From NCBI GenBank assembly GCA_036505615.1, contig DASXTB010000409.1:4540-68539 (forward strand): a DNA stretch of 64,000 nucleotides, written 5' to 3'. The notes beneath the pieces were generated by a model, which saw nothing but the letters and a program-made list of their open reading frames with translations, was not told the DNA's origin and did not search any database. Positions 6,058 to 61,468 of this stretch are shown here, piece after piece. Made by a program: the position numbers and the translations under genes. The number at the start of each line of letters is the position of its first letter. Position 1 is the first letter of the stretch. The DNA comes from Acidobacteriota bacterium. GTDB taxonomy: Bacteria; Acidobacteriota; UBA6911; JACQSX01.

Positions 6058-6088
6058 AGTATGGAACGAAGTATAGAACATGGATACG

Positions 6089-6245
6089 AGCGGGAGAGTG
6101 GGTGAGCGGGCGAGCGGCTGAGTGGGCGAGTCGGTAATCCCGTGATCCTTCAAACTCTCTATTATACGGTTCTCCAGTGACCGGCTCCCCTACTCCAGCG
6201 CTCTCCACTCCCCCACTCTCCCGCTCACCCACTCATTCCCTCTCC
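6089..6245. repeat. Inverted repeat (GRGAGTGGG-type units) between convergent genes
   Basis: 6089-6138 (gggagagtgggtgagcgggcgagcgg...) is the reverse complement of 6196-6245 (...ctctcccgctcacccactc). Likely a bidirectional terminator hairpin. The same unit family recurs inside a CDS at 58795-58915. Confidence 0.6.
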
Positions 6246-16455: not shown

Positions 16456-16471
16456 TCGAACTGAAACTGAA

Positions 16472-18566: not shown

Positions 18567-18903
18567 AAGCCAGCTATCAGCCATCAGTCATCGGTCATCG
18601 GTCATCGGTAGTCAGTCATTGGTAGTCCTCTCATCGGTCATTAGCTTCCGTGAGCAACTGGACCAGGGATCTGATTTATTTTCAAAAATTGCTTCGCAAA
18701 TTTTCAGCTGGAGGAGTTATGTAAAGCGGAGACTTGGCAAATTAGACCAGGAATTGCGTATGTTTCTCCGCTTGATCAACGGCTACGTCCGATCGATAGG
18801 AGACCGATGACTGATGACCGATGACCGATGACTGATAACCGATGACTGATGGCTGATGGCCGATGACCAATGACCGATTAACGATGACTGATGACCGACG
18901 ACG
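18567..18903. repeat. CATCGGT heptamer array (18567-18644) and inverted ACCGATG array (18806-18903) flanking a 160-bp unique core
   Basis: Direct read of tandem catcggt/catcagt units on the left and accgatg/actgatg units on the right. The core has SD-ATG-TAA at 18710-18724. Confidence 0.7.
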
Positions 18904-19900
18904 CAGAATCGGTCTGCAGGCGTTCCAGTATGGAAATGGTTCTGGACCCGCGGTTACAGACAAAAACGTAGGCGTTGTCGCGGCTCACATGCACTGCAGC
19001 TGGTTTGACGCCGACTGCAACTTGCTCCAGCTCGGTAAATGACTCCAGGTCGAAGATTGCAACTTTGCCTTCCAGACCGTTTGTCACGTACAGATACTTG
19101 CCGTCGCCGCTAATCTCCATTGCAGTCGGGCCACTTCCGGTCGAGATGTGTTTGGTTTCTTTCTCTTCGTCCAGGGAAATCCGCACTACACTGTTGCGAG
19201 GTCCAAGCGCGAACAACCAGCGCTCCTGAGGATCGACAACCAGCGGTGTGTCCCTTGCCGTAACAACATTGAACGTACGGATCACCTTTTTTAGCGTCAT
19301 ATCAACGACGGCTATCTGTTGCATACCCACCGCAACGTAAGCTTGACCTCTCTGCGTCGCTACGGCCAAGCCCGCGATTGGAGAGTTAAACTCTACTTCC
19401 TTGATGGGACGGTATGTAAAGGGGCTGAGAAAGGCGAGCTTCTGATGACGGGCCAGAAGCACCAAGACCTCACGCTGGTATTGTCCGAAAAAGGTCGGTC
19501 CCCCGCCCAGTGGGATGCTGCGGGTAAAGCGGTTTCCATAAAGATCGATCAAGGAGATTTTGCGGCCGCTCCAGTGTCCGATCAGAGCAAGCTTGTCTCC
19601 CGGCAACACGTGAATAAACAGCAGTGAACCATCCAGCCGAAGACGGCTTGTCACCCTGCCCAACCTCAAGTCGTAAAATAGTACTTGATCATCTCCTGTA
19701 GTAATAACCAACTTCCGGTTATCGGGCGTCACCCAGCTGGCAATCGGAACTGATTCCAACTTTACTGTCGTGAAAAGACGATGAGTCTGCTGCGCGTTGG
19801 CAATGGACCAAAGTGCGAAGCTGGCAAGAAAGAATGAGGCTGGACCGTTGAATTTCGGTTTTCTGCGCAAGTCTTTCCCCTGGCAATCGTCGTCAGTCAT
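18878..19900 (-). CDS. Secreted YVTN-family beta-propeller protein
   Basis: Start taken at MTDDD...FFLASFALWSIANA (signal peptide). Repeats contain YVTNGLEGKVAIFDL and YVFVCNRGSRTISILE. Confidence 0.6.
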   Translation of the reverse strand: MTDDDCQGKDLRRKPKFNGPASFFLASFALWSIANAQQTHRLFTTVKLESVPIASWVTPDNRKLVITTGDDQVLFYDLRLGRVTSRLRLDGSLLFIHVLPGDKLALIGHWSGRKISLIDLYGNRFTRSIPLGGGPTFFGQYQREVLVLLARHQKLAFLSPFTYRPIKEVEFNSPIAGLAVATQRGQAYVAVGMQQIAVVDMTLKKVIRTFNVVTARDTPLVVDPQERWLFALGPRNSVVRISLDEEKETKHISTGSGPTAMEISGDGKYLYVTNGLEGKVAIFDLESFTELEQVAVGVKPAAVHVSRDNAYVFVCNRGSRTISILERLQTDSASSVISHR

Positions 19901-19929
19901 TCGGCATTGGCCGGATAAAAGCCGATCAC

Positions 19930-20025
19930 GACCACGTTCACGAGCAGGTCCACGCCTACGCGGACGAAAATACACAATCGCTCACGATTCGACTGGTCGT
20001 AGTCGTGGACGTTGACGTGTTAGCG
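19930..20025. repeat. Dispersed ~100-bp CACGNN-hexamer palindromic element, copy 1 (copy 2 inverted at 26397-26513)
   Basis: gtccacgcctacgcggacgaaaatacacaatcgctcacgattcgactggtc here matches the reverse complement of 26440-26490 with 2-3 differences. Confidence 0.7.
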
Positions 20026-33229: not shown

Positions 33230-34002
33230 GGCGTCACCTGGCTTCCGATGATCCCCCGAAGCTGCGGAGGCAATGCGGGTGCACCACCCGCGATCGCCCG
33301 AGAATCGGCGTTGATGATGCCTACGATTCTCAATTTTTGCTGGTTCTTTTTGACCAGGGTGATACGAATCGCCAACGGCAGCCTTCCGATTGTCTCGGCG
33401 TCCCAGGGACCATCCCATGAGTAATCGCCCTGCCCTCTGTCGCCGAAATACTCAAATTTCCCGTTCTCCAGGCCCGAAAAAAATACCGTGGATTTCTGCG
33501 CGCCGGCGCCCATGTTCAAATAAGTCTGCCCGCCTCGGTACTGGCTCTCTGCTTCAAGAAAATCCAGGCTCCCCTGCGTTCCCGGAGCCAGAGAATAAGA
33601 GATCATCGACATGCCGGCGTTCTTCTTGAAGAACAGCGGAGCAAAGCTGGCAAAGAGCACATGCTGGTCGTCGCCTTTAAACAGCGGCGGAATCTGCTGC
33701 CGCATCGCAACCAGTCGCTCAAAGAATCCCTGGGGATTCAGTTCCGGCTGTTCGCCCTGCCGCTGCGCGCGGATTGGCTCGTAGAATTTCCCTTTCGGCC
33801 GAACCGGGAATGAAGATCCAATCTGCGTCTTGACCAGCTCGATGATTACTTTCTCGCGCTGGGAGCTTTCTATCCGCTCGTTCCCTTTTCTGTAGGCATT
33901 CAGAGAGACTCGCAGCGCCAGAAACACGATCACAGACAGAACCGACACCAGCGTCAGCGTGATCAGCAATTCAAGCAGTGTAAAACCTCGTTGGCCTCTC
34001 AT
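33226..34002 (-). CDS. GspJ-like pseudopilin
   Basis: Prepilin N-terminus MRGQRGFTLLELLITLTLVSVL. Start at 34002 overlaps the stop of the upstream gene (ATGA). Confidence 0.55.
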   Translation of the reverse strand: MRGQRGFTLLELLITLTLVSVLSVIVFLALRVSLNAYRKGNERIESSQREKVIIELVKTQIGSSFPVRPKGKFYEPIRAQRQGEQPELNPQGFFERLVAMRQQIPPLFKGDDQHVLFASFAPLFFKKNAGMSMISYSLAPGTQGSLDFLEAESQYRGGQTYLNMGAGAQKSTVFFSGLENGKFEYFGDRGQGDYSWDGPWDAETIGRLPLAIRITLVKKNQQKLRIVGIINADSRAIAGGAPALPPQLRGIIGSQVTP

Positions 34003-34772
34003 TGGAAATTCCTGAACGGGTTGTTGGGCTGAGCTATGGGCGGGCGAGGCGCGTTGGGGGGCGCGCTGAAAGCACCGGGAGTGTTCAAGGCCGGCTGCTC
34101 GCGCAAGCCCACCGGTTTCAGGCAAACCAGGCGATACAGCTTTCCATTTTTGTCATTCTTGTAGATCACATCCACACGGACGCTCAACAGTTTCATGGGA
34201 AATTGGGTGCGTCCGTCCCATCGGGCTTGTTCTGGAATCTCAAAGTCTTGAACCATCGCCTCCCACCGGAAATTGTCGTCCAGATCATCGTGTCTAGTTA
34301 TCGGGCCCTTGATGGTCTCATCGGAGAGAATTTCATTCATGACGTTCTCCGCGTAATTCATCGCCTGGCCGGCCAGGTCCATCTTGCGCACATTCTTCAG
34401 CGCTCCTGAAAAGAGTTGCAGAGCTACAGTGATGCCTATGCTGACGATCGCCAGCGCCACGACCACTTCCAGTAAGCTGAAACCCCTCCTGGAATGCCGA
34501 ATGCCGAGTGCGGAATGCGGAATGCTTTCTGAATGCGGAATGTCTTTTGAACGCGGAAGGCGAAATGCGGAATGCGGAATGCTCCTTGAATGCGGAATGG
34601 GGATTGCGGAATGCGGAATGTCTCCTGATTGGGGAACGTCCAACGCGGAACAGAGAGTGAAAGACGGCAGCCGATTAACAGTTTGAAATCCCCATTCCGC
34701 ACTCTGCATTCCGCATTCCGCATTCGATACCCCGCATTCCGCATTCGAAATTCCGCATTCGAAATTCCGCAT
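33999..34772 (-). CDS. GspI-like pseudopilin; 5' end undefined because the ORF runs into a GCGGAAT repeat array
   Basis: Prepilin motif SRRGFSLLEVVVALAIVSIGITVAL at ORF residues 95-120. No ATG/GTG lies near the motif; the nearest in-frame candidates are ATT (34502) or TTG. The upstream 90 codons are translated repeat. Confidence 0.5.
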   Translation of the reverse strand: MRNFECGISNAECGVSNAECGMQSAEWGFQTVNRLPSFTLCSALDVPQSGDIPHSAIPIPHSRSIPHSAFRLPRSKDIPHSESIPHSALGIRHSRRGFSLLEVVVALAIVSIGITVALQLFSGALKNVRKMDLAGQAMNYAENVMNEILSDETIKGPITRHDDLDDNFRWEAMVQDFEIPEQARWDGRTQFPMKLLSVRVDVIYKNDKNGKLYRLVCLKPVGLREQPALNTPGAFSAPPNAPRPPIAQPNNPFRNFQ

Positions 34773-34800
34773 TACCCACGCTCCTTCGGGATGGTCAACT
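34490..34800. repeat. GCGGAATGC heptamer/nonamer arrays in inverted orientation within the pseudopilin operon
   Basis: (gcggaatgc)n at 34490-34640 and (gcattccgc)n at 34690-34790. Confidence 0.7.
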
Positions 34801-35428
34801 TAGCCGATCCGGTAATCACGTCGGTTTTCACAATCACCTTCCGGCCGCGGTCGTTTTCCAATACCAACTCCGCATCATCGGCTCGGCCGTTCGGGTAAAA
34901 GCTGATGTAGACGGCCGGATCCCGACTTTCCTCTCCTTCAAACTTTACGGAACTCACTTTGATCTCGTCGCTAAGCCCAAAGTCGTGGACCTTGTCGTGA
35001 TAGGCGTCCGCCAGAAAGATGATGTTGCGGTCCCTTTGGACTGCGATCCGATAAACCCGCTGCTCCCCGACGGCCAAAGTCCGGGCGGTGCGGCACAATG
35101 TAACGAAGTCTCGCCCTTTGGCCTCCAGTCTCATGCCCGCAAGGCCCGTGCGCATCGACGGCATCACAACCGCCATGGCGACGGCTATTATCACCAACAC
35201 GATCACGACCTCGATGAGGGTGAAACCTCTTCGGGATTGCGGAATGCGGAATGCGGAATGGCTCAATTGCGGAATGCGGATTGCGGACTGCGGATTACTC
35301 GATTTCGGATTTCGGATTGCGGATTGCGAATTGCGGATAGTACGTTCCAATCTGTCAATCCGCAATCCGCAATCCGCAATCCGAAATTGGATAACCTGAT
35401 GCTCCAAAATACAGCCATCAAAGTGCAC
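34772..35428 (-). CDS. GspH-like pseudopilin; 5' end undefined (repeat array upstream)
   Basis: Prepilin motif QSRRGFTLIEVVIVLVIIAVAMAVV. No nearby ATG; a TTG at 35266 would give a 14-aa leader. Confidence 0.5.
   Translation of the reverse strand: MHFDGCILEHQVIQFRIADCGLRIDRLERTIRNSQSAIRNPKSSNPQSAIRIPQLSHSAFRIPQSRRGFTLIEVVIVLVIIAVAMAVVMPSMRTGLAGMRLEAKGRDFVTLCRTARTLAVGEQRVYRIAVQRDRNIIFLADAYHDKVHDFGLSDEIKVSSVKFEGEESRDPAVYISFYPNGRADDAELVLENDRGRKVIVKTDVITGSAKLTIPKERG
35235..35400. repeat. CGGAATG/CGGATTG arrays with an inverted CAATCCG partner
   Basis: cgggattgcggaatgcggaatgcggaatgg...gcggattgcggattgcgaattgcgg / caatccgcaatccgcaatccgcaatccg. Confidence 0.65.
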
Positions 35429-35865
35429 TAGTTACTCTCCCACGAAGTGATGTCGGCATTTTGGCCTTGGCCACCCTCTTGGCCGTCTGGGCCAAAAGAG
35501 TAAAGATCGAACTCACCGTGCTGGCCGGGGCAGCGATAGATGAATTCACGCTTCCAGGCATCTTTGGGCACGAAGTTCTTCTGCAGGTATGGACCATTCC
35601 AGTTGGCGATGTTTCCCGGATTTACTAACAAGGCGTGCAGCCCCTCTTCTGTTGCCGGATAACGACCCACATCAACCTTGAATGAGTCCAGCGCCGTCTC
35701 CAACAAGCTGATCTGCCTCTTGGTAATCGTTATTCGGGCCTTTATCAGGTGATCCATGATTGCTGGAGTCACCAGCCCGGCCAGCAGACCCAAAATGACA
35801 AGAACTACAATCAGTTCGATCAGAGAAAACCCTCTCTGCCTTTCTTCACTTCTGTCCGTTGCCAT
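35428..35865 (-). CDS. gspG: Major pseudopilin GspG
   Basis: MATDRSEERQRGFSLIELIVVLVILGLLAGLV. GspG hallmark C-terminus (YSFGPDGQEGGQGQNADITSW). Confidence 0.8.
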   Translation of the reverse strand: MATDRSEERQRGFSLIELIVVLVILGLLAGLVTPAIMDHLIKARITITKRQISLLETALDSFKVDVGRYPATEEGLHALLVNPGNIANWNGPYLQKNFVPKDAWKREFIYRCPGQHGEFDLYSFGPDGQEGGQGQNADITSWESN

Positions 35866-35958
35866 AAGACCTCCGATCCGTATGGATCCCGCTGGGACTA
35901 ATTCCGCATTCCGCAATCCGCATTCCGCATTTGAGCGAATCCGCATTCCGCAATCGCA

Positions 35959-36399
35959 TCACCGCTTGTCCACCCACGAGGTAATATCCGCGTTTTCGCC
36001 GTCTCCTCCCTCCTGGCCGTCGGCGCCCAGCGAATAGAGGTCGTATTCACCGTGCTGCCCGGGAGCGCGATAGACGTAGTCATGACCCCAGGGGTCTTTC
36101 GGTACCGCGTTCTTCTTCAAGTAGGGCCCGCTCCAATTGGCGATATTTCCCGAGTTTTGAATCAGCGATTCCAGCCCCTCCTGGGTTGTGGGATAACGGC
36201 CCACATCGAAGTTGAACAAATCCAGCGACTCCTCAAACTGCGAGATCTGGACCTTGGCTATCTGCGCGCGGCTGCCTTTCAACTTGGACATCACCTTGGG
36301 ACCTACCACCGCGGCCAGCAGGCCTAAAATGACCAGTACCACGATCAGTTCGATAAGCGAAAATCCTTCATCTTTCCGTTTGCGTTCGACCTTGAACAT
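35959..36399 (-). CDS. gspG: Major pseudopilin GspG, second paralog
   Basis: MFKVERKRKDEGFSLIELIVVLVILGLLAAVV ... YSLGADGQEGGDGENADITSW. Confidence 0.8.
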   Translation of the reverse strand: MFKVERKRKDEGFSLIELIVVLVILGLLAAVVGPKVMSKLKGSRAQIAKVQISQFEESLDLFNFDVGRYPTTQEGLESLIQNSGNIANWSGPYLKKNAVPKDPWGHDYVYRAPGQHGEYDLYSLGADGQEGGDGENADITSWVDKR

Positions 36400-37746: not shown

Positions 37747-37917
37747 TTTTTAATTTCGGATTGCGGATTGCGGATTTCGGATTGCAGATTTCGGATTGCG
37801 GATTGGGAATTGACAGCTAAGCGAGTTGCTCACAATGCGCAAACCCGCCATCCGCGAATCCCCAATCCGCAATCCGAAATCAGCAGTCCGAAATCCGAAA
37901 TCCGCAATCCGCATTCC
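37747..37917. repeat. CGGATTG heptamer arrays in inverted orientation between gspF and gspE
   Basis: tttcggattgcggattgcggatttcggattgcagatttcggattgcggattgg ... aatccgcaatccgaaatcagcagtccgaaatccgaaatccgcaatccgc. Confidence 0.7.
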
Positions 37918-45947: not shown

Positions 45948-45960
45948 CTTAAGTTAGGTC

Positions 45961-46150
45961 GCAAGTCGCAGGTCGCAGGTCGAATCCTCAAGTCGCAGGT
46001 CGCAGGTCGCACGTCGAAATCCTCAAGTCGCAGGTCGCAAGTCGCAGGTCGCAGGTCGAAAGCGAAAACCCAGACTTTTAAAGTTCCTCTTAAAAATGAA
46101 AAAGGGGTCATGGACTCGGAACCTGCGACGTGCGACCTGCGACTTGTAAC
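45961..46150. repeat. GTCGCAG heptamer arrays in inverted orientation
   Basis: (gtcgcaggtcgcaag)n at 45961-46060; cctgcgacgtgcgacctgcgac at 46120-46145. Overlaps the last ~13 codons of trmFO. Confidence 0.65.
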
Positions 46151-47547
46151 CTTTGTTTACAGAATTCTTCCATCGCCTGGCGCGCCAGCGCAATTTGACC
46201 AGCCCGGCGCACTTCTTTTTTCCCCCGCATTTCGACAGGCGGCAGCAACCCAAAGTTTATGTTCATCGGCTGAAAGCTCGCCGAATCTGCCTGGGTGATG
46301 TAATGCAGAAGGCTCCCAATTGCGGTCTCTCGAGGAAACTCGAGCGGGTTGCCTCCTGAAGCCACTCGCATGGCATTCCATCCGGCAACCAGTCCGGTGG
46401 CCATTGATTCGACATACCCCTCCACTCCGCAGATCTGGCCCGCGAAATAGATCTCCGGCCGAAACTTCAACTGAAGCGCCCGGTTTAGCAGCCGGGGAGC
46501 GTTAATAAACGTGTTTCGATGAATCTGGCCCAGCCGGATAAATTCGGCGCGCTCCAGGCCCGGGATCAGCCGGAAGACTCGCTGCTGTTCCCCGTAGCGA
46601 AGGTGATTTTGAAAACCTACCATGTTATACGCGTCGGCCACCAGGTTTTCCTGGCGCAGTTGTACCACTGCATATGGCTGCAGGCCAGTTCGAGGGTCGC
46701 GCAGGCCAACAGGCTTCATAGGGCCAAATCGGAGTGTGTCAAGCCCGCGGCGGGCCAGCTCCTCGATTGGAAGACAGGCCTCAAAGAACATCGCCTTTTC
46801 GAATTCCTTAACAGCGACCGACTCCGCATGCAGAAGAGCGTCGTAGAAGCGCTCGTACTGATCGCGTGCCATCGGGCAATTCACATAATCGCCGTCAGCG
46901 TGCTGTTGGACTTCCGCTTGTTTACAGGCAGCGTGCTGCGTTTCAGTGGAATGACCGGTTTCCTGTGGAGACTCAGCCCGCCGCTTCTCTTCCAAAATTC
47001 GATGATCGTATCGCGAGCGCCGAAAAACCTTGTCCCAATCAATCGAGTCGGATTCCACGATGGGACTGATGGCATCGTAAAAATAGAGCGCCGCTTCACC
47101 GGTCATCTCCTTAATGAAGCGCGAAAGTCCCGGTGAGGTGAGCGGCCCGGTGGCGATGATGGCAATTTGGCCCGCGGGAATCTCGACCACTTCGGACCTT
47201 TCTACGCGGATTGAGGGATGGTTTTGCAGGGTCTGTGAAATCGTCTGGCTGAACTTTTCCCGATCCACGGCAAGAGCCGCTCCGGCCGGAACTTTGACCC
47301 GGTCGGCAATGGAGATTAGCAGAGAGCCGCACCGCCGCAGTTCCCATTTCAGCTGGTGTGGCGCGCTCCCCTCGAGGTCGGACTTGAACGAATTGCTGCA
47401 CACCAGCTCGCCCAGCCAGTCGGTTTGATGAGCCGCGGTCTTGACCGCAGGCCGCATTTCAAACAGGCAAACCTTGCCGCCCTGCTGCGCAATCTGCCAC
47501 GCAGCCTCTGACCCTGCCAGTCCACCACCGATGACCCAGATCTCCAT
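46108..47547 (-). CDS. trmFO: Methylenetetrahydrofolate--tRNA-(uracil54-C5)-methyltransferase TrmFO (Gid)
   Basis: Start at MEIWVIGGGLAGSEAAW (FAD GxGxxG). FAGQICGVEGYVESMATGLVAG. C-terminal ~13 aa are repeat-encoded. Confidence 0.85.
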   Translation of the reverse strand: MEIWVIGGGLAGSEAAWQIAQQGGKVCLFEMRPAVKTAAHQTDWLGELVCSNSFKSDLEGSAPHQLKWELRRCGSLLISIADRVKVPAGAALAVDREKFSQTISQTLQNHPSIRVERSEVVEIPAGQIAIIATGPLTSPGLSRFIKEMTGEAALYFYDAISPIVESDSIDWDKVFRRSRYDHRILEEKRRAESPQETGHSTETQHAACKQAEVQQHADGDYVNCPMARDQYERFYDALLHAESVAVKEFEKAMFFEACLPIEELARRGLDTLRFGPMKPVGLRDPRTGLQPYAVVQLRQENLVADAYNMVGFQNHLRYGEQQRVFRLIPGLERAEFIRLGQIHRNTFINAPRLLNRALQLKFRPEIYFAGQICGVEGYVESMATGLVAGWNAMRVASGGNPLEFPRETAIGSLLHYITQADSASFQPMNINFGLLPPVEMRGKKEVRRAGQIALARQAMEEFCKQRLQVAGRTSQVPSP

Positions 47548-47552: not shown

Positions 47553-47700
47553 TAAATGGGACACGGATGAACACGGAATACACGGATGAAGCCCCCGTCG
47601 CGGCCGGTCAAGAGACCGGTTCAGTATGTGGTTGGTCGGCCGCGACGGGGGCTTCATCCGTGTATTCCGTGTTCATCCGTGTCCTGATAAAACGGCAAGA
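47553..47700. repeat. Giant perfect palindrome (48-bp stem, 30-nt loop), CACGGAT family
   Basis: ggacacggatgaacacggaatacacggatgaagcccccgtcgcggccg ... cggccgcgacgggggcttcatccgtgtattccgtgttcatccgtgtcc. Confidence 0.75.
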
Positions 47701-51574: not shown

Positions 51575-52039
51575 ATGTCGCCGACTGGCAAGAGACAACG
51601 CCAGACCCTGATTCGCAGGATTATCGCTGAAGAGGAAATCTTCAGCCAGGAAGAATTGCGAAATGAACTGCTGAAGCGCTCGGTGAATGTTACGCAGGCC
51701 ACTCTTTCCCGCGACATCGCCGAGCTGGGCCTGGTAAAACAGTCCTCCACGGGAACCTACACGCTTCCTGAAAACGTGACTGAACATACAGAGGCTCACG
51801 CCATTTTGGCCCGCATGCGCCAACTGGTTCAGGAGATCGATTTCTCAGGCAACCTGGTGCTGGTCAAGACCGCGCCAGGCGACGCGCAAGCAGCGGGACT
51901 TGCCATGGACCACCTTCAATTCAAGGAAGTGGTGGGAACCATCGCCGGCGACGATACCCTGCTCGTGGTGATACGGGCAAAATACAAAGCATCGGGCTTT
52001 GCCAGAAAACTGGAGAAAATGCTGGCAGGAGAAGGCTAG
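51575..52039 (+). CDS. argR: Arginine repressor ArgR
   Basis: 154 aa. N-terminal winged helix (FSQEELRNELLKRSVNVTQATLSRDIAELGLVK). C-terminal GTIAGDDTLLVV. No SD; a TAGAAT -10-like hexamer lies 9 nt upstream, so the transcript may be leaderless. Confidence 0.85.
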   Translation: MSPTGKRQRQTLIRRIIAEEEIFSQEELRNELLKRSVNVTQATLSRDIAELGLVKQSSTGTYTLPENVTEHTEAHAILARMRQLVQEIDFSGNLVLVKTAPGDAQAAGLAMDHLQFKEVVGTIAGDDTLLVVIRAKYKASGFARKLEKMLAGEG

Positions 52040-52450
52040 GAGGCAGGAAGCAGGAGGCAGGAAGCAAACGGCAGGAAGCAGGAAGCAGGAAGCAGGAGGC
52101 AGGAGCCAGGAGGCAGGAGGCAGGAGGCAGACGGCAGAAGGCGGAGGCAGAAAGCGGAAGGCCGAAGGCGGAAAGCGGAAGGCAGTAGACAGAAAGCGGA
52201 AGGCGGAAAGTGGAATGCAGCAGGCGATGGCTTACAAGGCGTCATCTGTCATTCGTCATTTGTTACCCACAACGACAGACGACGATTTGATACGTGAACT
52301 GTCTTCTGCCTTCCGCTTTCTGCCTGCTGCTTTCTGCCTGCTGCTTTCTGCCTTCTGCTTTCTGCCTCCTGCTTTCTGCCTTCCGCCTTCCGCTTTCTGC
52401 CTACAGCCTTCCGCTTTCTGCCTACAGCCTTCCGCTTTCCGCCTTCCGCC
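52031..52450. repeat. GCAGGAA heptamer array (52031-52230) and inverted TTCCTGC array (52300-52450) between argR and argF
   Basis: ggaggcaggaagcaggaggcaggaagc... versus ...ctgccttccgctttctgcctgctgctttctgcc. Confidence 0.75.
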
Positions 52451-53416
52451 TTAAACGAACTCCCGGTGCAGCGCTTTCAGCAGCAGGGCCTTGTGCACGT
52501 GCAGGCGGTTTTCGGCCTGGTCGTAGACGATGGAGCGCGGTCCATCGATAACTGAATCAGAGACTTCTTCACCCCGGTGCGCGGGAAGGCAGTGCATGAA
52601 GAACGCCTTCTTGCCGGCGCGGGTCATCAGTTGTGGAGTCACCTTGTATTGTGCAAAGTCCCGCAACTTCCTTTCTGCATCCCTCTCCTGGCCCATACTG
52701 ACCCAGGTGTCTGTGTAAACGGCATCCGCTCCAAAAAGATGGCCCAGATCGTGGCTGAATTCCACGATGCTGCCGCTCTCCCCGGCAAATTGTGCCGCGC
52801 GCCGGCAGCAGAGTGCGTCCGCCTCATAACCGGGAGGCGAGATCAGAGTGAAGTGCATTCCCAGCAGAGCGCAAATCTGCATCAGCGAGTTACTGACGTT
52901 GTTGGGGTCTCCCACGTAAACCAGCTTGCGATGCTTCACCTCACCCCAGCGCTGCTGCAACGTCAGGACGTCGGCCAGCACCTGGCAGGGATGTTCAAAA
53001 TCGCTGAGCGCATTAATCACCGGGATGGATGAATTTCGAGCCAATTCCTCCAGCGTCGATTGGGAGAATGTTCGAGCAATCACAATGGAGCACCAGCGCT
53101 CCAGATTCCTTCCTGTGTCCTTGATCGATTCCCGTTCACCAATCTTCTGCTGCTGGCAATCCAGAAAACTGGCCGTACCTCCCATGCTGTGCATTCCAAT
53201 TTCAAAAGTGAGACGGGTGCGGAGAGAAGGCTTTTCAAACAGCAACACGGCGTGACAGCCGGAGAGCGAATTCTGATGCGTCTCGGGCGCATTCTTCACC
53301 AGACACGCCAGTTGCAGCAGGTCGTGGATGCGTTCCACGCTGAGATCGGAGATCGCAAGCAGATGTTTCGGCCAGTCCCCCGCTGGATTCGTCTTAGGCT
53401 TCTTCAAGTTCTTCAT
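52451..53416 (-). CDS. argF: Ornithine carbamoyltransferase
   Basis: FEKPSLRTRLTFE (STRTR-type carbamoyl-phosphate site), HCLPAHRGEE. Start taken at MKNLKK (the ORF extends to 53524). Confidence 0.85.
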   Translation of the reverse strand: MKNLKKPKTNPAGDWPKHLLAISDLSVERIHDLLQLACLVKNAPETHQNSLSGCHAVLLFEKPSLRTRLTFEIGMHSMGGTASFLDCQQQKIGERESIKDTGRNLERWCSIVIARTFSQSTLEELARNSSIPVINALSDFEHPCQVLADVLTLQQRWGEVKHRKLVYVGDPNNVSNSLMQICALLGMHFTLISPPGYEADALCCRRAAQFAGESGSIVEFSHDLGHLFGADAVYTDTWVSMGQERDAERKLRDFAQYKVTPQLMTRAGKKAFFMHCLPAHRGEEVSDSVIDGPRSIVYDQAENRLHVHKALLLKALHREFV

Positions 53417-54797
53417 CAAGCTCCTGAATTTTCTTTTGAATGAAGTCAGGGTTAGGGCTTCCCAGCGTCTTTTTGCGTCGCAGCGAAGCGCCGGGCGCAA
53501 AATTATCAAAAATGTCTTCTTCAAAAACGGGATGGTGCTGCTGGAATTCCTGCAGCGTCCAATGGCGCCAGTTCTTGCGTGTCTTCAGGTATTCCTGGAC
53601 CATGCGGCCCACTACCGCGTGAGCTTCGCGGAAGGCGACGCCGTGAGAGACCAAGTATTCGGCAAGATCGGTGGCCATCAGCAACGGATCGGAGGCAGCG
53701 GCGTTGACGCTCTCTTCGTTGACGCCGATGCCATGGATGACGCGCTCCAGCACCGGCAACACGGCAAGCACCGTTTCAGCCGCCTGGAAGAGGAACAGCT
53801 TGTCCTCTTGCATGTCGCGGCTGTAGCCGCTGGGGAGGCCTTTCATCAGTGTCAGCGCGCTCATCAGATTTCCCACCACACTGGCGGTTTTCCCCCGCAT
53901 CAGCTCCAGCGCGTCGGGATTTTTTTTGTGCGGCATCAAGCTCGAGCCGGTGCAGAGGGAGTCCTCCAGCCGAATGAAATCAAATTCGGAGGAACACCAC
54001 AGAATCAGGTCTTCGCACAAGCGGCTCACATGTGTCATCAGAATGGCCGCATCACTGAGGAATTCCAGCAGCCAGTCGCGATCGCCCACCGTGTCGATAC
54101 TGTTGGCCGTGGGCCCCCGAAATCCCAGCACCCGGGCGGTAAATTTACGGTCAATCGGCAGGGTGCTGCCCGCGATGGCGCCCGAACCAAGCGGCGAGAA
54201 CTGGAGGCGCTCCTCCAAATCCTTAAGCCGCGCGCGATCGCGCTGGAACATTTCATACAGCGCCAGCCAGTAATGTGCCAGGCTTACCAACTGTGCCCGC
54301 TGCAAGTGAGTGTAAGCCGGGATGGTGACGGTCAGATCACGCTTGGCTGACTTGAGAAGCGCGCGCTGAACGTCGCGCAGGCGCCAGTCGATCAAACGCA
54401 ATTGGTCGCGCAAATAGAGCATCGAGTCGACGGCAACCTGGTCGTTGCGGCTGCGGCCGGTGTGAAGCTTGTCGGCGGCCTGGCCATACATCTCCTTGAG
54501 CTTGAATTCAACGAAGCTATGAATGTCCTCGTGCTTCTCGACTTCTTTCCAGTCGTTCTCAGCCTCGCATTGAACCAGTTTCTTGTGCAGGACGCTGATA
54601 CCGTTGAGCAGCTGTTCGGCCTCGCTCTGCGTCAGCAGTCCCTGCTGTTCCAGCATCAGCACGTGGGCGCAGCTTCCCTGCAGGTCGTAGCGCCACAATT
54701 TCCGGTCAAACCAGGACGAGCGGGTGAAATTGTCGATGATTTCTTCCAGCGGGCTCTGGAATCGATTCGCCCAAAGTTTTTGTGTAGTCATTGACAC
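53394..54797 (-). CDS. argH: Argininosuccinate lyase
   Basis: 467 aa. Fumarate-lyase signature [12 protein letters not shown]. Confidence 0.9.
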
Positions 54798-54826: not shown

Positions 54827-56176
54827 TCAAGCCCGCTTCCCCAAAGGTTGAGATTGATGCTTTTCGTCTTCCTGCCGACTGCCTTCTGCCTCCTGCCTTC
54901 CGCCTTCTGCTTTCTGCCTTCTGCCTTCCGCTTTTTGCCCTCCGCCGTCTGCTTCCTGCCTGCTGAGCGGAGAGGGTCGCAGCAGCGCGTTCACACGCAG
55001 GCGCGTCGCCTGCAGGCGGATGAATCCTTCGGCGTCCTTCTGCCGGTAAACGTCGTCCTTTTCAAATGTCGCCAACTCCTCTGAGTAGAGAGACCGGGCC
55101 GCACGCCGTCCCAGCACGCTGCAGTTTCCCTTGTACAAACGCAGCTTGACTTCACCGGTCACGTTCTCCTGGCTTTCACGGACAGTTTTCTGCAGCAGCC
55201 GCATTTCCGGCGAAAACCAGAAGCCGTAATAGGTCCACTCAGCAAACTTCAGGCTCAACTCTTCTTTCCAGTGCTGGACTTCGCGATCCAGTGTGATCGA
55301 TTCCAGAGCCCGGTGCGCGTGCCACAGCAAAGTGGCGCCCGGCGTTTCGTACACTCCGCGAGATTTCATCCCTACGAAGCGATTTTCCACCAGATCGACG
55401 CGGCCCACGCCATGAACTCCACCCAGCTTATTGGCCTCCTCCAGAAGTTCCACCGGGCCAAGCGGCCGGCCATTGATGGCGACAGGAATTCCTTTTTCAA
55501 AGCTGAAAACAACCGTCTCTGGACGCTCCGGGGCAGTGACCGGGTTGGCCGTCAGGATGTATATATCCTCCGGAGCCTCGGCCCAAGGATCCTCAAGGAT
55601 TCCTCCCTCGTGGCTGCAGTGCATCAGATTACGGTCGGTGCTGTAGGGCTTTTCCAGAGTGGCCGTCACCGGCAGCGAATGCTTCCTGCAATACGCGATC
55701 AGATCGGAGCGGGACTGCATCTCCCAGTCGCGCCAGGGAGCGATTACCTGAATATCAGGAGAAAGTGCGTAGAAGGTGAGTTCAAAGCGAACCTGATCGT
55801 TGCCCTTGCCGGTGGCGCCGTGCGCGACGCAGAAAGCCCCCTCCTTTCGCGCTACTTCCAACTGATGCTTGGCGATGACGGGGCGAGCCAGCGAGGTGCC
55901 CAGAAGATAATAACCCTCGTAAAGGGCGTTTGCCTGAATTGCCGGGAACACGTAGTCACGGACGAATTCTTCGCGCAGGTCCAGAATGAGGCTCTTGGAA
56001 GCGCCCAAGGATTTGGCCTTCTCTTGCAACCCGTCCAGCTCTTCGGCCTGGCCTACGTCGGCGGTAAAGGTGACGACCTCGTATCCTTTTTGATGCTTCA
56101 GCCAATGAAGCATCACTGTCGTGTCCAGCCCGCCGGAGTAAGCCAGCACGACCCGCTTTAAATTCTTCTCCTGCAT
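54827..56176 (-). CDS. argG: Argininosuccinate synthase with a repeat-encoded low-complexity C-terminal tail
   Basis: 449 aa. [10 protein letters not shown] (PP-loop). The last ~45 aa ([37 protein letters not shown]) are translated from the GCAGGAA-family array at 54845-54965. Confidence 0.9.
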
Positions 56177-56254: not shown

Positions 56255-59200
56255 TCACGGGATGGGCGCGCGAATTCCGCGAATGCGGTAGTTGCCTGTA
56301 TCGGCGAAGAGAAGATTGCCGGCAGGGTCGAAATCCAGAAACGACGGCAGCTTCAGAGCGGTGTTGGTGGCCTGAGTGTTGTCACCCGTGAAGCCGCTTA
56401 TCCCGTTGCCGGCCACCGTAGTGATGACACCTGTCTTTGCTGCCACCCTTCGAATCCTTGTCTCTTCCGAAACGAAAAGATTGCCGGCGGCGTCGAACTT
56501 AACGCCCACTGGATGGTTCAGGCCCGCAGCCGTAGCAGGCCCGTTATCACCGGAGGAACTGGCCTGGCCGTTGCCGGCCACCGTCGTGATAATGCCCGTA
56601 GCGGCGTCCACCCGGCGCACCCGATTGTTCCCACTGTCTGCGATTACTAAATTTCCGGCACTGTCAACGGCAATACCTGTCGGCGAATTCAAAGCGGCAT
56701 CGGTCGCAGGGCCGTTGTCGCCAAGACGATCGGATGGGCTTCCTCCTCCCACGGCCGTGGTAATGATGCCGCTTCTCAGATCCACCCTACGAATCCGGTT
56801 GTGGTTTGTGTCTGCGACGTAAAGCACCCCCGCGCGGTCGATGGCGATTCCTTGCGGCAAATTGAGGCTGGCGGCGGTGGCCGGTCCGTTATCCCCTGAG
56901 AAATCCGACTGACCGTTTCCCGCCACGGTTGTGATGACGCCGGCGCCGTCCACTTTTCGAATTCTGTTGTTTAGCGAGTCGGAAATGAAAAGATTTCCAC
57001 TCCCGTCGATGGCCACGCCAGTTGGAGAGCTTAATGGACTCGAGGCGGCTGGAACATTGTCTCCAAGAAAACCGGCAATTCCGGTTCCGGCGACAGTGGT
57101 GATAATCCCGGTGCTTGCGGTAACTTTTCGGATCCGTTGGTTTCCGAAATCTGCAATAAAAAAGTTTCCCGCAGCATCCACCGCGATTCCTTGCGGCGAA
57201 AGCAAATTGGCTGCCGTTGCCGGTCCGCCATCCCCCAGGAAACTTTGTTGGCCGTTGCCTGCCACTGTGGTAATCGTTCCCGCCGAGACCCTTCGAATCC
57301 GGCTATTTCCCTGATCCACGATCAAAAGATTGCCGGCGCCATCTGTCGCCACTCCGTAGGGTGATGACAAGGCAGCCTGCGTCGCAGGGCCGCCGTCTCC
57401 AGAGAAACCCTGCACCCCAGTTCCAGCTACAGTGGTGATGATTCGCGTGGAGGCGTCGACCCGCCGAACACGGTGGTTGGCTGTGTCGCCAATGAAAAGG
57501 TTACCAGCGACGTCCACGGTAATACCGGCGGGAGAATTCAGCATCGCGCTGGTTGCACTCTGCAAGTCGCCGGAAAAGCCGGCCTGCCCGTTTCCCGCGA
57601 CCGTGGTAATCACTTTCGAAGCGGCATCGATTCTTCGAATCCGTTGATTGACCGTGTCGGCAACGAAGACATTACCGGAAGCATCCAGCGCAATTCCTTG
57701 GGGGGATCTGAGGGCCGCGGCCGTGGCCGGCCCGTTGTCGCCGCCAAAGTCTGGATCCGTTCCTGCAATCGTAGTGATGATTCCGGTCTTTGCATCGACT
57801 TTGCGAATACGGTGATTCGAAGTGTCGGCGATAAGCAAATTGCCTGCTCCATCGATCGCCACTGCGCGTGGGGCATTCAACGTTGCCTGAGTGGCCGGCC
57901 CCCCATCCCCGGCGAAGGGCCCCAGCCCGCGTCCCGCAACGGTTGTGATAGTTCCAGTCGCCGCGACGATTTTTCGGACCCGGCTGTTTGCTGTGTCCGC
58001 GACGTATAGATTCCCCGCACTATCGATGGCGATTCCTCGTGGGAAAGCCAGCGAAGCGGCGATAGCCGGCCCGCCGTCGCCGGAAAAGCCGATCTGGCCG
58101 TTGCCCGCCACGGCAGTAATAATTCCGGTCGCCGCGTTGATCTTTCGGATGCGATTATTATTTGCGTCTGTAAAGAAAATATTTCCCGCAGGGTCGACGG
58201 CCATTTGCTGCGGGCTGAAAAGAGTAGCTTCAGTGGCCGGACCTCCGTCGCCCGTAAAAGTCGTCCCTCCGGCGACCGTGGTGATCTGTCCGGGAAGCAA
58301 ATCACTTAGAGGAATCGGATCGACGAGCAAGGGTTTCTGCGCCACGCCGCCGCGGTTCTGCACTGTCAGAGTCAGGCGGCCGCTGGGAAGCGGAGGCGCG
58401 ATAACAGTCAGCGTCTGCGTGTCCAAGACCTGCGGGTTTGCCACGACCCCTCCCACGATCACCACTGTCTCAGGCGCAAAATTCCTTCCGCTGATTGTGA
58501 CCAGCGCGCCGCCTTTGTTGCTGACTCGGCCGGGATTGATGCTGGAGATCGACGGCTCGCCGTAGGTGATTTCGCCGTTGGAGCGGCTGCTGTCGGCCAC
58601 CAGAACCTTTCCGCTGCGCGTGATGGCGATTCCTCTGGGAGTGGCGAACGTATTGGCTTGAGCGGCGGCGGCGATATCTCCGTTTCGCAGCAGGGCAGTT
58701 ATCTGACCTGAATTTGCCTCCGTCACATAGATGTTACCGAAAGGATCTACCGCTACGCCGGTGGGGGATTTGAATTTCAACGGGGAGACTGCGAAAGGGC
58801 GAGTGAGGGAGGAGGAGAGCGGGGGAGTGGGAGAGGGGGGGAGTGAGAGAGTGTGGGAACGGGGGAGTGGGCGAGTGGGAGAGTGGGTGAGCGGGAGAGT
58901 GGGAGATGTCGGAAATGTAACTCGCCCGACATTCCTCTTGGCTGCAATGGCGCCGATGGTTTCCACTGTGCCGTCTTCTTTAACCCGGCGCAGCAGGCCG
59001 TTTCCGGTGTCGGCGACGATGACACTGACCGGCGGCGGAGGATCTCCCGTTGCTTCGCGCGCCAGTTGCTGGCCGAGCGACTCGGTCTCAACTGCGATCC
59101 CGGCAGGGAAGTTGAAGCTGGCAGCGGAGCCGACTCCATCCGCTGCGCCGGCCACACCCGCTCTTCCAGCAACGGTCTCCACCGTCTTTGCCTTGCTCGG

Positions 59201-61468
59201 ATCCAGGCTGATTCTGCGGATGGTGTGGTTATTCGAATCGGCAATCCAAAGGTTGCCGCGATCGTCCAGCGCCATCCCCTGCGGATTGTTGAAGGTGGCT
59301 GCGTTGACCGGGCCATCCAGGCTCCCGGCTTGGCGCGTTCCGGCCAGCGTGTCCGCGCGGCCGCTGGGGCCCGGCCGCACCTGGCGAATGACATTGTTGT
59401 CGCTGTCGCTGACGTATAAACTGCCGTCGAATTGATTGAGCACCAGAAACGACGGCCTCTGAAACAAGGCCTTCAGTCTTTCATCTTCGCGGAAGCCGGG
59501 AGTCTGACTGACTCCTGCATACAACGCCGGAGTGGATTCAAGGTCGGGCGCAAGCAGGATGGTGTGATCGCTGGAATCTGCCAGATAAACTCTTCCGCCC
59601 AGATCCTGCGCAATTCCCGTGATTACAAAGCCCGCTTCTGCAAATTTGTCGCGCTTTCTCTGCACTACGGCGCCGGAAGTAACTTTGACCACTGTAATGG
59701 TGGCTCGGATCTCCGTTCCCCCACCCGAAACTTTCAGTGTGGCAAAGCCACGAAGCTTGCCCTGGATTTTTCCCAGATCATCCACAAAGGCGACATCGGG
59801 GCTGAGACTGCTCTGCGCCAGCGTGATTTCGTCGCGTATGTTGCCGTCGCTATCGAGCGCCCGCGCGCGGAGTTGAGCGATGTTCCCTTCGTTGACGATG
59901 ACTTCCTTGGCCGAGGGATTAAAAGGGTCCAGGGCAATGCGCGCTACGGCAACAAGTTGTCCCGGCGTCAATTGGACTCCACCGCCCGGAAGGATCCGGT
60001 ATGGAAACCGGCTGTCGGTTTGAACTCCCAGGGGAAGGGTCAGTCCGTTGCCGTCGTCGCGGAAAAAGCTTACTGACCCGGTCGAGGCTCTAATCTTGTC
60101 CGTGCCGATGAAGATCAAGCTTGTGGAATATCCGGCGCCGAAGCCGATCTGAGGAAAAACGAGAGAAGTAGCGGTGACGGGCCTTGTCAAGTCGGCGATG
60201 GGAAGAGTTGTCAGGATGGGATGATTTCTCTGATTGATGCTCAGCTTCAAGGTAACCGGCGCTACCGGCACAGGACTGCTGATTTCCATCAGGCCGGTGA
60301 AATTGGACGGCGCATCCGGAAATAGTTCATCGACGAAGATGGGGAGATGCCCTCGCGGAGGCAGTACCCGAGTTGTTCGTTGAATCAGGTCTCCGCTGCG
60401 GCCCATCAGGTCGAAGGTCACCGTGGTTTGGGGATTGTCGGGGCTGGCAATGGCAATGCCGGTGCGGGTGGCCCTGTTGTCTACAAAGACGCGCGCATCG
60501 GTTGTGGGCGCCACCGCAGCCACTCCTGCTTCGCTCACGACGCGGTTGTTCGATGTGAACTGGAAAATAGCGCTGCCAGCCGGAGCCGCGCTTCCTTGAA
60601 GTAGAGTCACCACGGCATAACCCACCGCAGTACCCGAGGAGCTGTTGAGTTGTGCGCGATATACGCCATCGGCCTCGATCTGATAGGGGAATTCCGAGGA
60701 GACAGCCGCGGATGCTTCTCCCAATGACGCGGATGAGGGACAGCACGCTATTTCTCTATCGGAAACCTTCGTGAGCTGAAATTGCAGGGGCATCCCGTCC
60801 GATCCGATCAACTGAATCATGCCGCCGATCCGCTGAGAGCTGCGATTAATCAGGACCAGTTGAGTTGATAAATTACTTCCGGCGCCGATCTGAGGGAAAA
60901 CAATTGATCCGGTTGCCGGCGTCGCTGACATGTCCACCACCGGAAGCGTGGCATAAATCGGCTCGTCCAAGACGTTTCTGCTTTCGCGCAGAGTGATGGC
61001 CGCCAGCTTTTGATCGCTTTCAAAACTGAGGCTGCCCATAAAAGAGAGAGGCAGATTGGTAAAAAGTTCATCGACGAACAAGGCCAGATGCTGGCGAGGC
61101 GCGAGCGTTTGATTTTTTCGATCCACTTCTTTACCCGAAGCATCTCGCAGAACCAGTGTCAGGATCGCCTTTTGGTCGGATGGATTGACGATGGCAACGG
61201 CGGTGCGTCTCCCTTGTTGGTCGACAAAGATTCTTCCCGAGCGGATCGGTTCTGCGGCGCCCACACCGGCCTGCCAAATCATCACACCGTTGGTATTTGT
61301 GAACGTGAACAAAGCTGTGCCCACGGGCGTGGCGCTTCCGCTGTCGGCGGTGATCACAGCGTATCCCACCTGTAATGAAGTTTGGGAATAGACAAAGCAG
61401 AAGAGAGCAACCGCGAAGAGCGCCACGAGCGTGAAGCGTCCGAGCCGCAGCCAAAAGTCATCAGTCAT
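56255..61468 (-). CDS. Giant secreted NHL-repeat beta-propeller protein (1737 aa) with IPT/Ig-like domains
   Basis: N-terminal hydrophobic anchor/signal. More than 20 NHL-type repeats (GDGGPAT..L..P.GIA.D..GN.Y.AD..N.RIRKV). IPT-like segment (RVSNKGGALVTISGRNF). An internal in-frame heptamer-repeat linker at 58795-58915. Confidence 0.75.
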   Translation of the reverse strand: MTDDFWLRLGRFTLVALFAVALFCFVYSQTSLQVGYAVITADSGSATPVGTALFTFTNTNGVMIWQAGVGAAEPIRSGRIFVDQQGRRTAVAIVNPSDQKAILTLVLRDASGKEVDRKNQTLAPRQHLALFVDELFTNLPLSFMGSLSFESDQKLAAITLRESRNVLDEPIYATLPVVDMSATPATGSIVFPQIGAGSNLSTQLVLINRSSQRIGGMIQLIGSDGMPLQFQLTKVSDREIACCPSSASLGEASAAVSSEFPYQIEADGVYRAQLNSSSGTAVGYAVVTLLQGSAAPAGSAIFQFTSNNRVVSEAGVAAVAPTTDARVFVDNRATRTGIAIASPDNPQTTVTFDLMGRSGDLIQRTTRVLPPRGHLPIFVDELFPDAPSNFTGLMEISSPVPVAPVTLKLSINQRNHPILTTLPIADLTRPVTATSLVFPQIGFGAGYSTSLIFIGTDKIRASTGSVSFFRDDGNGLTLPLGVQTDSRFPYRILPGGGVQLTPGQLVAVARIALDPFNPSAKEVIVNEGNIAQLRARALDSDGNIRDEITLAQSSLSPDVAFVDDLGKIQGKLRGFATLKVSGGGTEIRATITVVKVTSGAVVQRKRDKFAEAGFVITGIAQDLGGRVYLADSSDHTILLAPDLESTPALYAGVSQTPGFREDERLKALFQRPSFLVLNQFDGSLYVSDSDNNVIRQVRPGPSGRADTLAGTRQAGSLDGPVNAATFNNPQGMALDDRGNLWIADSNNHTIRRISLDPSKAKTVETVAGRAGVAGAADGVGSAASFNFPAGIAVETESLGQQLAREATGDPPPPVSVIVADTGNGLLRRVKEDGTVETIGAIAAKRNVGRVTFPTSPTLPLTHSPTRPLPRSHTLSLPPSPTPPLSSSLTRPFAVSPLKFKSPTGVAVDPFGNIYVTEANSGQITALLRNGDIAAAAQANTFATPRGIAITRSGKVLVADSSRSNGEITYGEPSISSINPGRVSNKGGALVTISGRNFAPETVVIVGGVVANPQVLDTQTLTVIAPPLPSGRLTLTVQNRGGVAQKPLLVDPIPLSDLLPGQITTVAGGTTFTGDGGPATEATLFSPQQMAVDPAGNIFFTDANNNRIRKINAATGIITAVAGNGQIGFSGDGGPAIAASLAFPRGIAIDSAGNLYVADTANSRVRKIVAATGTITTVAGRGLGPFAGDGGPATQATLNAPRAVAIDGAGNLLIADTSNHRIRKVDAKTGIITTIAGTDPDFGGDNGPATAAALRSPQGIALDASGNVFVADTVNQRIRRIDAASKVITTVAGNGQAGFSGDLQSATSAMLNSPAGITVDVAGNLFIGDTANHRVRRVDASTRIITTVAGTGVQGFSGDGGPATQAALSSPYGVATDGAGNLLIVDQGNSRIRRVSAGTITTVAGNGQQSFLGDGGPATAANLLSPQGIAVDAAGNFFIADFGNQRIRKVTASTGIITTVAGTGIAGFLGDNVPAASSPLSSPTGVAIDGSGNLFISDSLNNRIRKVDGAGVITTVAGNGQSDFSGDNGPATAASLNLPQGIAIDRAGVLYVADTNHNRIRRVDLRSGIITTAVGGGSPSDRLGDNGPATDAALNSPTGIAVDSAGNLVIADSGNNRVRRVDAATGIITTVAGNGQASSSGDNGPATAAGLNHPVGVKFDAAGNLFVSEETRIRRVAAKTGVITTVAGNGISGFTGDNTQATNTALKLPSFLDFDPAGNLLFADTGNYRIRGIRAPIP
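58795..58915. repeat. GRGAGTGGG heptamer array embedded in-frame in the NHL-protein CDS
   Basis: gggagtgggagagggggggagtgagagagtgtgggaacgggggagtgggcgagtgggagagtgggtgagcgggagagtgggag. Translated on the minus strand as PTLPLTHSPTRPLPRSHTLSLPPSPTPPLSS. Confidence 0.7.

Follow-up and report, generated by a model that had tools for sequence, protein, structure and literature searches.

The source genome belongs to an uncultured, soil-type Acidobacteriota that is rich in 7–8-base tandem repeats, and the 64-kb stretch of it analyzed here (hereafter, the window) holds ~36 array segments amounting to 2.3 kb in total, the majority of which lie in intergenic spacers and the majority of which form inverted pairs. 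These pairs are found at 16469/16587, 34491/34685, 35234/35356, 37753/37833, 45958/46120, and 52030/52299, with further octamer (6087/6185), 9-mer (24582/24659), and 10-mer (47561/47653) pairs. Three arrays in the window are translated, namely those in the tail of argininosuccinate synthase (ArgG), in a loop of a large NHL-repeat protein, and at the end of TrmFO, and in all three Tandem Repeats Finder confirms short units arranged head to tail. That repeat arrays sit in frame within these three open reading frames, as the original prediction held, is a genuine and non-artefactual property of the locus. The two long in-ORF arrays, in ArgG and the NHL protein, are orphan arms, unpaired and unstructured, and no inverted partner of either is found nearby. 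An Rfam gathering scan and a tRNA scan of the window returned no matches. The features discussed below are collected in Table 1.

Table 1. Genes, repeat arrays, and predicted protein segments in the window
Feature	Position	Strand	Remarks
Inverted octamer pair, GAGTGGGN family	6087..6235	.	Tandem Repeats Finder rows 6087-6135 and 6185-6235; intergenic
Right arm of trmFO-xerC spacer hairpin, ~15 CTGCGAC copies	45958..46062	-	Tandem Repeats Finder
TrmFO	46108..47547	-	479 aa (NCBI HEY3132126.1); Pfam GIDA; 100% match to P0241
Left (short) GTCGCAG arm, coding for the final TrmFO residues	46120..46152	-	Three units, 46121-46143, period 7
argR/argF convergent-spacer hairpin arm, ArgG-array unit family	52030..52220	.	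First units encode the argR end and stop
Opposite argR/argF arm	52299..52452	.	First unit opens with TAA, the argF stop
argH	53394..54791	-	Start ATG 35 nt past the argG stop; Lyase_1 calls in syntenic loci
argG ORF	54827..56176	-	449 aa; NCBI annotates the same 449 aa (HEY3132133.1)
ArgG C-terminal extension, 48 codons and stop	54827..54973	-	Predicted disordered
ArgG orphan heptamer array, 13 GCAGRRR units, 21-nt super-period	54868..54965	-	Tandem Repeats Finder
ArgG canonical core, residues 1-401	54974..56176	-	Pfam, structure alignment, predicted helix
NHL-repeat/TIG-domain protein	56255..61468	-	1737 aa; Pfam NHL, TEN_NHL, SGL, TIG
Disordered inter-blade loop holding the insert, residues about 842-893	58790..58945	-	AlphaFold2
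Orphan octamer array (coding strand: CCCACTCN)	58797..58906	-	Tandem Repeats Finder, period 8/16

The canonical part of ArgG is delimited by three lines of evidence. Pfam recognizes Arginosuc_synth and Arginosuc_syn_C, the C-terminal domain stopping at residue 394; the 400-aa Thermus thermophilus ArgG structure (1J1Z) aligns with residues 8–400; and the final helix predicted by AlphaFold2 spans residues 379–399. The last ~45–48 residues are therefore extra, and residues 405–449 are modeled with pLDDT below 50. The ORF does read through the array (periods 7, with 12.4 copies, and 21), as had been predicted of the tail, but only ~33 of the 48 tail residues (about 405–437) are array-encoded, and after the 13 units the coding strand continues as non-repeat sequence to a TGA. 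The argG stop is separated from the argH start by 34–35 nt in L001 and L090 as well. No in-frame stop lies between residues 401 and 449 in the window, L001, L090, L002, L004, or L089, and programmed stop-codon read-through of argG is rejected, since the canonical end holds no stop to be read through.

Comparison with relatives does not bear out the claim that the array added ~45 residues to an otherwise canonical enzyme. Each of the nine close-clade members (79–100% ArgG identity) carries 28–52 residues past RLRVNA, and these sequences are mutually unrelated. Most of the inspected ~400-aa relatives (~70% identity) end four residues past RLR..A (RFRD), and two have 15–18; among the matches listed in a genome-contig search with ArgG, identity reached at most 69% and no close-clade member appeared. 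The original prediction had named an equally long, unrelated tail in a repeat-free relative as evidence against insertion, and the nearly repeat-free L089 (79% identity) carries just such a tail of 45 residues. There is no tandem repeat at the L089 argG tail, one weak 3.4-copy heptamer lying elsewhere in that locus, and argG there ends in a stop codon that shares bases with the start of argH (ATGA). The argG tails of L004 and P0004 likewise overlap argH, and P0004 is a possible array-free argG site. The array itself is carried only by the window lineage, L090, and L001, and is missing from the argG-argH spacer of L002, L004, and L089, where the operon organization is otherwise identical. Evidently, the close clade lost the canonical argG stop, and the ORF reads into the argG-argH spacer regardless of what the spacer contains. 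Because all close-clade members have unrelated tails, L089 included, the tail was not made by the array and appears to predate it. The boundaries of the putative array insertion are those drawn from protein comparison only.

In TrmFO, an array arm forms the end of the protein, which reads ...RLQVAGRTSQVPSP (more fully, ...KQRLQVAGRTSQVPSP) before the stop, the ORF ending at 46108. Of the 13 repeat-encoded residues originally predicted, recognizable units account for ~7–9. The trmFO-xerC spacer has the same inverted layout, (GTCGCAG)n...(CTGCGAC)n, in the window, in L087 (from the L001 genome), and in L088 (from the L002 genome), and in each the left arm begins at the same codon, directly after EEF(C/L)KQR or EEFLIKE. 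Unit number in this arm is ~3 in the window, 9 in L087, and 7 in L088, and the stops differ: TGA past degenerate units in the window, TGA within GTTGAAG in L087, and TAG within GTCGTAG in L088. The tails that follow A(M/L)xxF measure 17, 23, 19, and 33 residues in the array-bearing P0241, P0242, P0243, and P0247, and 8–12 residues in most array-free orthologs. The last residues of TrmFO and its stop clearly come from the array, whose presence at this position is older than the split of these species (66–83% TrmFO identity).

The NHL-protein array is translated as PTLPLTHSPTRPLPRSHTLSLPPSPTPPLSS, about 36 residues rich in Pro, Ser, Thr, and Leu, in which three octamers make up 24 nt and hence an eight-residue period (PTLPLTHS / PTRPLPRS / HTLSLPPS / PTPPLSSS). 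Its location between propeller blades was correctly predicted: residues 322–373 of the modeled segment have pLDDT below 50, two isolated residues excepted, and on either side of this disordered loop lie propeller strands, for which 10-residue blocks average mostly ~80–95. The interval from VETI.. to F.SPTGVAVDPFGN holds 21–30 poorly conserved residues in homologs, which were available at 46–55% identity only, and 60 in the window; the excess of ~30–39 residues coincides with the array-coded stretch. The insert is ~108 nt long, ~4.5 × 24 and a multiple of three, because survival of the gene demands an in-frame length; this is survivorship, with a prior of one third. A fusion of two genes across the array is rejected, as the array has NHL blades to either side and homologs are unbroken at this point. 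The GAGTGGGN pair of Table 1 is a putative member of the same family as the NHL insert, assigned by eye from the consensus units.

The element family can thus be said to remodel proteins, as originally claimed, in that ArgG has 13 or 7 units, TrmFO tails run from 17 to 33 residues with differing stops, and the NHL loop is lengthened. Unit number differs at orthologous sites for the ArgG and TrmFO arrays, as is characteristic of simple sequence repeats. Copy number varies between species for ArgG and TrmFO and is the same in the window and L006. The latter, an independent JGI assembly, aligns collinearly and without gaps to 8611 nt of the window, differing at 14 positions (99.84% identity); its ArgG and NHL arrays are identical to those of the window, with none of the 14 mismatches inside either, and four of the 14 sit in an array adjoining the L006 contig end. 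No array length polymorphism was seen among near-identical strains (one pair, the window and L006), and two metagenome-contig scans with the unique flank that follows the ArgG array (one exact, one degenerate) yielded no additional strains. The comparisons made here span three array-bearing ArgG lineages and one near-identical strain pair.

A frame preserved over more than 100 nt had been taken to imply selection, and the composition of the repeats argues against this. Because 7 and 3 are coprime, whichever frame is read meets every one of the seven registers within 21 nt, and a perfect heptamer array consequently leaves the three frames of a strand either all open or all closed. At the base composition of the window, 74% of random heptamers are open in the three frames of one strand and 58% on both strands, compared to a probability of 0.17 that a random 46-codon stretch is open; within the window, 38 of 72 array-strand instances are fully open. 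On its coding strand the ArgG array contains a single T in 106 nt, and none of the six frames is closed. The open frame through this array is arithmetic, and selection is unnecessary to explain it. Selection against T in the coding array is also rejected, as non-coding arms of the GGCAGRA family are equally T-poor (0–0.047, versus 0.010–0.073 in coding copies). The NHL array has no stop in any coding-strand frame, and since stops close two of the three frames of its G-rich strand, it is translatable only in the C-rich orientation. The same property affects gene starts: in three pseudopilin ORFs (33999-35946), the N-terminal methylation motif lies 36–93 residues inside the mechanical ORF, which is too long at its 5′ end because the arrays before the true starts lack stops.

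In 11 of the 44 genes in the window, an array starts within −25 to +18 nt of the stop, and in three species argR and argF each stop on the opening triplet of the array's first unit (TAGGCAG or TAAGGCG). The paired arms of trmFO-xerC and argR/argF fold as very long imperfect hairpins; the former are up to 96% complementary (RNA fold of −85.5 kcal/mol, z = −7.2), and the latter reach −227 kcal/mol (z = −12.3). The lone arrays behave otherwise, with the NHL array at z = −0.75 and the ArgG array RNA less structured than its shuffles (z = +2.5). The arrays do not look like intrinsic (Rho-independent) terminators: there is no U-run directly after the 3′ arm of the paired hairpins, where the sequence reads ...GACCUAACUUAAGAUG for trmFO-xerC and ...CUCCUGCCAGCA for argR/argF, and the ArgG and NHL arrays form no hairpin. 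A phase-variable contingency locus does not fit ArgG or TrmFO either, because the arrays follow the last domain residue and a frameshift would alter only the disordered tail. In the NHL protein, where the array is mid-ORF, switching by unit change could in principle occur; the window and L006 showed no variant. Set beside dispersed mobile elements of the REP/BIME or MITE type, which have near-identical copies with defined ends (terminal inverted repeats or target duplications), the arrays show units in tandem, a variant mix particular to each locus, and a few unit families that recur over loci and species. The ArgG array and the argF/argR arms 2.4 kb away belong to one unit family, which is also present at the argF/argR spacer in L001 and L002, and this shared membership suggests local spread.

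The three translated arrays look like a passive by-product of stop-free repeats rather than evidence for selection, and we consider it probable that arrays expanding and contracting without stops are simply read through and tolerated only in dispensable tails and loops. Intergenic spacers are largely filled by short-period arrays (mostly 7 nt, some 6–10 nt), usually as two inverted arms, that gain and lose units, probably via replication slippage, a mechanism we infer, and that normally reach the neighboring stop codon. With most units stop-free in every register, an array in or entering a dispensable translated region would be read through. In ArgG, the 13-unit orphan arm occupies a C-terminal extension already present across the clade, whose argG has no stop at the canonical end; the conserved spacer hairpin beside trmFO gives that protein, through its left arm, the last residues and, in the sister species, the stop too; and in the NHL protein, an octamer array lies within a naturally variable inter-blade loop. 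Selection would act only as a filter, the disordered tail accepting anything and the interior of a gene retaining only in-frame lengths. This passive read-through builds directly on ORF continuity, stop-free composition, comparison of the tails, predicted disorder, and the pattern of divergence described below, and we infer that the repeat-coded peptides are functionless.

Several observations count against passive read-through, and they concern the ArgG array. Its 13 units and the 449-aa length are kept in both the window and L001, although core third positions differ by 33%, and the stop position is common to the window, L001, and L090. The sole length change is a multiple of 21 nt: L090, whose third-position divergence from the window is 0.14, has seven units and a 435-aa ORF, with an array 42 nt shorter (2 × 21) in frame and with the residues after the array and the stop unchanged. 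Units retain GCAG between the window and L001 while positions 5–7 vary, and overall nucleotide divergence of the tail is 0.22, below the 0.33 of core third positions. The low divergence and the kept GCAG hint at some constraint, which would not necessarily be on the protein.

Two bolder possibilities can be named, both of which we regard as doubtful. This acidobacterial clade could regularly draw new, inherited peptide sequence from stop-free short-period arrays, with length changes inside ORFs filtered to 21- or 24-nt steps, in which case array-born segments such as the Pro/Thr-rich NHL linker and the ArgG tail, with its 13 units in two species, would be maintained; or the ArgG array could be a putative cis-acting RNA arm, in which case it would pair with the complementary arm beyond argF and tune the arg operon.

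More generally, the ArgG array may be kept for a role at the level of nucleic acid, with its translation incidental; the purine-rich (AAGGCAG)n of an argGHF transcript could, for example, pair putatively with the (CUGCCUU)n arm downstream of argF, or the array could bind a putative unit-recognizing protein. The unit family shared with the argF/argR arms in the window, L001, and L002, the GCAG core with its variable positions, the stable unit count, the low tail divergence without a codon-position pattern, and the recurrence of a few unit families over loci and species all speak for such a role. We nonetheless think it unlikely, as L002, L004, and L089 have no such array in the corresponding spacer despite their otherwise identical operon organization, the array RNA alone is less structured than shuffled sequence, and within-array homogenization could explain GCAG conservation equally well.

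Selection on the peptides themselves, a charged ArgG tail rich in Gly, Lys, Glu, Arg, and Gln and a flexible Pro/Thr/Ser-rich linker in a secreted NHL protein, would hold the frame, and the 13 units kept in two species, the single in-frame 42-nt change, the conserved post-array residues and stop, and an NHL insert that is in frame and placed in a loop speak for it. The codon-position divergence makes this quite unlikely. Between the window and L001, the ArgG core diverges by 0.047/0.040/0.329 at the three positions and by 7.5% in amino acids, whereas the tail diverges by 0.229/0.167/0.271 and by 37.5%; this flat profile indicates that the tail is under no protein-level purifying selection. Relatives carry tails that are unrelated to the ArgG-array type or lack one, and both the ArgG tail and the NHL loop are predicted to be disordered. 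The post-array ArgG stretch is conserved about as well as, and no better than, the neighboring untranslated spacer upstream of argH, and its conservation may reflect argH initiation signals. As to length, a single in-frame event is expected by chance one time in three. The prediction that units come in multiples of 21 nt is weakly supported, by the one 42-nt difference and by a best-scoring Tandem Repeats Finder period of 21 for the coding arrays of the window and L001, compared to best periods of 14, 21, 28, 35, and 42 for non-coding arrays; a frame filter on the length of in-ORF arrays may be suggested on this basis.

Finally, an upstream argG stop obscured by a sequencing or assembly error is very improbable and effectively refuted: short-period arrays are difficult to assemble, as the mismatches in the contig-end array of L006 may recall, but the array is identical in that independent assembly, the ORF is the same 449 aa in a second species and 435 aa in a third lineage, and the canonical-position stop is absent in all clade members, so that sequencing error as the origin of the arrays is ruled out.

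Several known repeats are comparable to these arrays. The cyanobacterial short tandemly repeated repetitive (STRR) sequences comprise several heptamer families, arranged in tandem in the non-coding DNA of one lineage, with specific units (STRR1-3 and others) in heterocystous cyanobacteria. To our knowledge, paired inverted arms and translated copies fall outside the description of STRR; the likeness to our arrays is one of description, and the hosts differ, being cyanobacterial in one case and Acidobacteriota in the other. Our literature searches turned up no account of heptamer arrays in Acidobacteria, nor of an architecture with inverted arms there.

Among bacterial repeats, heptamers are known to be over-represented (PMC4679880; PMC4692102). 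MacGregor 2015 (PMC4679880) described direct TAACTGA heptamers in marine Beggiatoaceae and some cyanobacteria; most are intergenic, but a minority overlap the end of an ORF or sit within one in the stop-free orientation, encoding a peptide with a seven-residue period (LSVISYQ), and the paper argued that translation of the unit governs where arrays are permitted, at ORF ends or inside. Our arrays resemble this system in being tandem heptamers of which some are translated at ORF ends or within ORFs. They differ in architecture: the TAACTGA system has one dominant unit in 2–6 copies, nearly always direct and typically just upstream of starts (PMC4679880), whereas the window has many unit families, with up to ~25 copies, usually in two inverted arms that form long hairpins and abut stops. 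A gene at 18878..19975 of the window ends in SVISHR, coded by a TCAGTCA/ATCGGTC array related to the TAACTGA type.

Rehm 2015 (PMC4692102), in the portions available, describes G-rich heptamers (GGGAATC in Xanthomonas, GGGGAYT in Nostoc) that are over-represented and intergenic, concentrated within 50 nt of stop codons with some overlapping the stop, preferentially in four units, and read as G-quadruplexes. With its regularly spaced G-tracts, the G-rich strand of the octamer array in the NHL protein is similar to these repeats as far as those portions describe them; neither paired inverted arms nor long translated arrays appear there. Lin and Kussell 2012 (PMC3315296) showed that repeat indels are better tolerated at N- and C-termini and that out-of-frame indels near the 3′ end produce alternative stops and new C-termini. 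The ends of TrmFO and ArgG follow this terminus-tolerant pattern, although that study concerned short simple sequence repeats and within-species polymorphism, whereas the arrays of the window are 30–190 nt long, built of 7–8-nt units, and shared across species. The translated arrays are a fresh example of known repeat behavior at protein termini, embedded in a striking genome-wide system of inverted-arm arrays.

Where a genome abounds in heptamer arrays, an open frame that runs far through the repeats is to be expected by default and is uninformative on selection. A caveat for annotation follows, as arrays shape mechanical ORFs and some annotated termini, both C-terminal tails and the 5′ extensions of pseudopilins. 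The locus offers a clean natural case in which non-coding repeats supply, and keep altering, the last residues and even the stop of housekeeping enzymes, with a bearing on the origin of disordered tails and linkers. The more interesting biology here lies in the locus-specific inverted-arm arrays, which are conserved at orthologous spacers between species.

In the majority of the window's spacers that exceed ~100 nt, a short tandem unit specific to the locus is arrayed in two inverted arms. These arms pair into imperfect hairpins of great length (RNA-fold z against shuffles of -7 to -12), and no U-run follows them. The flanking genes are oriented convergently, co-directionally or divergently. 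We found no description of such inverted-arm spacer arrays in Acidobacteria in the literature.

Inverted-arm arrays and array-embedded stop codons
Feature	Sequence	Coordinates	Unit
Inverted-arm pair	window	6087-6235	8-mers
Inverted-arm pair	window	16469-16659	
Inverted-arm pair	window	24582-24688	9-mers
Inverted-arm pair	window	34491-34773	
Inverted-arm pair	window	35234-35387	
Inverted-arm pair	window	37753-37917	
Inverted-arm pair	window	45958-46152	
Inverted-arm pair	window	47561-47682	10-mers
Inverted-arm pair	window	52030-52452	
argR/argF stops inside array units	window	52030-52042; 52449-52453	
argR/argF stops inside array units	L001	11718-11725; about 11984	
argR/argF stops inside array units	L002	8528-8535; about 8779	

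In one pair, the arms at 37757-37811 and 37857-37911 are 93% complementary across 55 nt, with variant units mirrored in register (GGATTTC opposite GAAATCC). They are thus true palindromic copies rather than arrays grown independently, a pattern suggestive of inverted duplication or of selection on pairing.

In the genome of locus L001, the array hairpin between trmFO and xerC has an extra insert of ~330 nt in its loop (L087, about 3990-4400), composed of nested palindromes such as AGGCTGCTTCAGCAGCC... and CCAGCCGTAAACGGCTGG and absent in the window and in L088, the genome of locus L002. At the site occupied in the window by the ArgG array, the argG-argH spacer of L002 (157 nt, 6040-6195) has a hairpin that is different and not built of tandem units, CACCGCAGAGGCGCAAAGTACGCAGAG ... 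CTCTGCG..GTGCGTACTTTGCGTCTCTGCGGTG.

In three species, the argR and argF stop codons each form the opening triplet of the adjoining array's first unit (TAGGCAG or TAAGGCG), the arrays reaching exactly to the stop codon, stop included. A beta-propeller protein (18878..19975, minus strand) ends in SVISHR and its stop, encoded by an ATCGGTC/TCAGTCA array (18878-18902); this end resembles LSVISYQ, the reverse-orientation peptide of the Beggiatoaceae TAACTGA repeats. In a pseudopilin/GspG-like gene cluster (33999-35959, minus strand), each spacer holds an array; since these arrays are stop-free, mechanical ORFs run through them and gain 36-93 codons ahead of the N-terminal methylation motif. The annotated starts of this cluster should therefore be treated with caution.

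Within the NHL gene, the G-rich plus (template) strand of the octamer array at 58797-58906 has tracts of GGG or longer every 4-8 nt, a spacing compatible with putative G-quadruplex formation. Eight of the 14 mismatches between the window and L006, an independent, near-identical assembly, cluster in an 82-nt stretch inside this gene (59372-59453); either recombination between strains or gene conversion among the NHL repeats may have produced them. Four others fall in the array at 52340-52368, adjoining the L006 contig end.

A few heptamer families (AATGCGG/AATCCGC, AAGGCAG/AGGAGGC, ACCTGCG/AAAGTCG and ACCGATG/ACTGATG/AATGACC) are found repeatedly across loci and species (the window, L001, L002, L004, L087 and L088), and this recurrence hints at a common origin or a sequence-specific factor.
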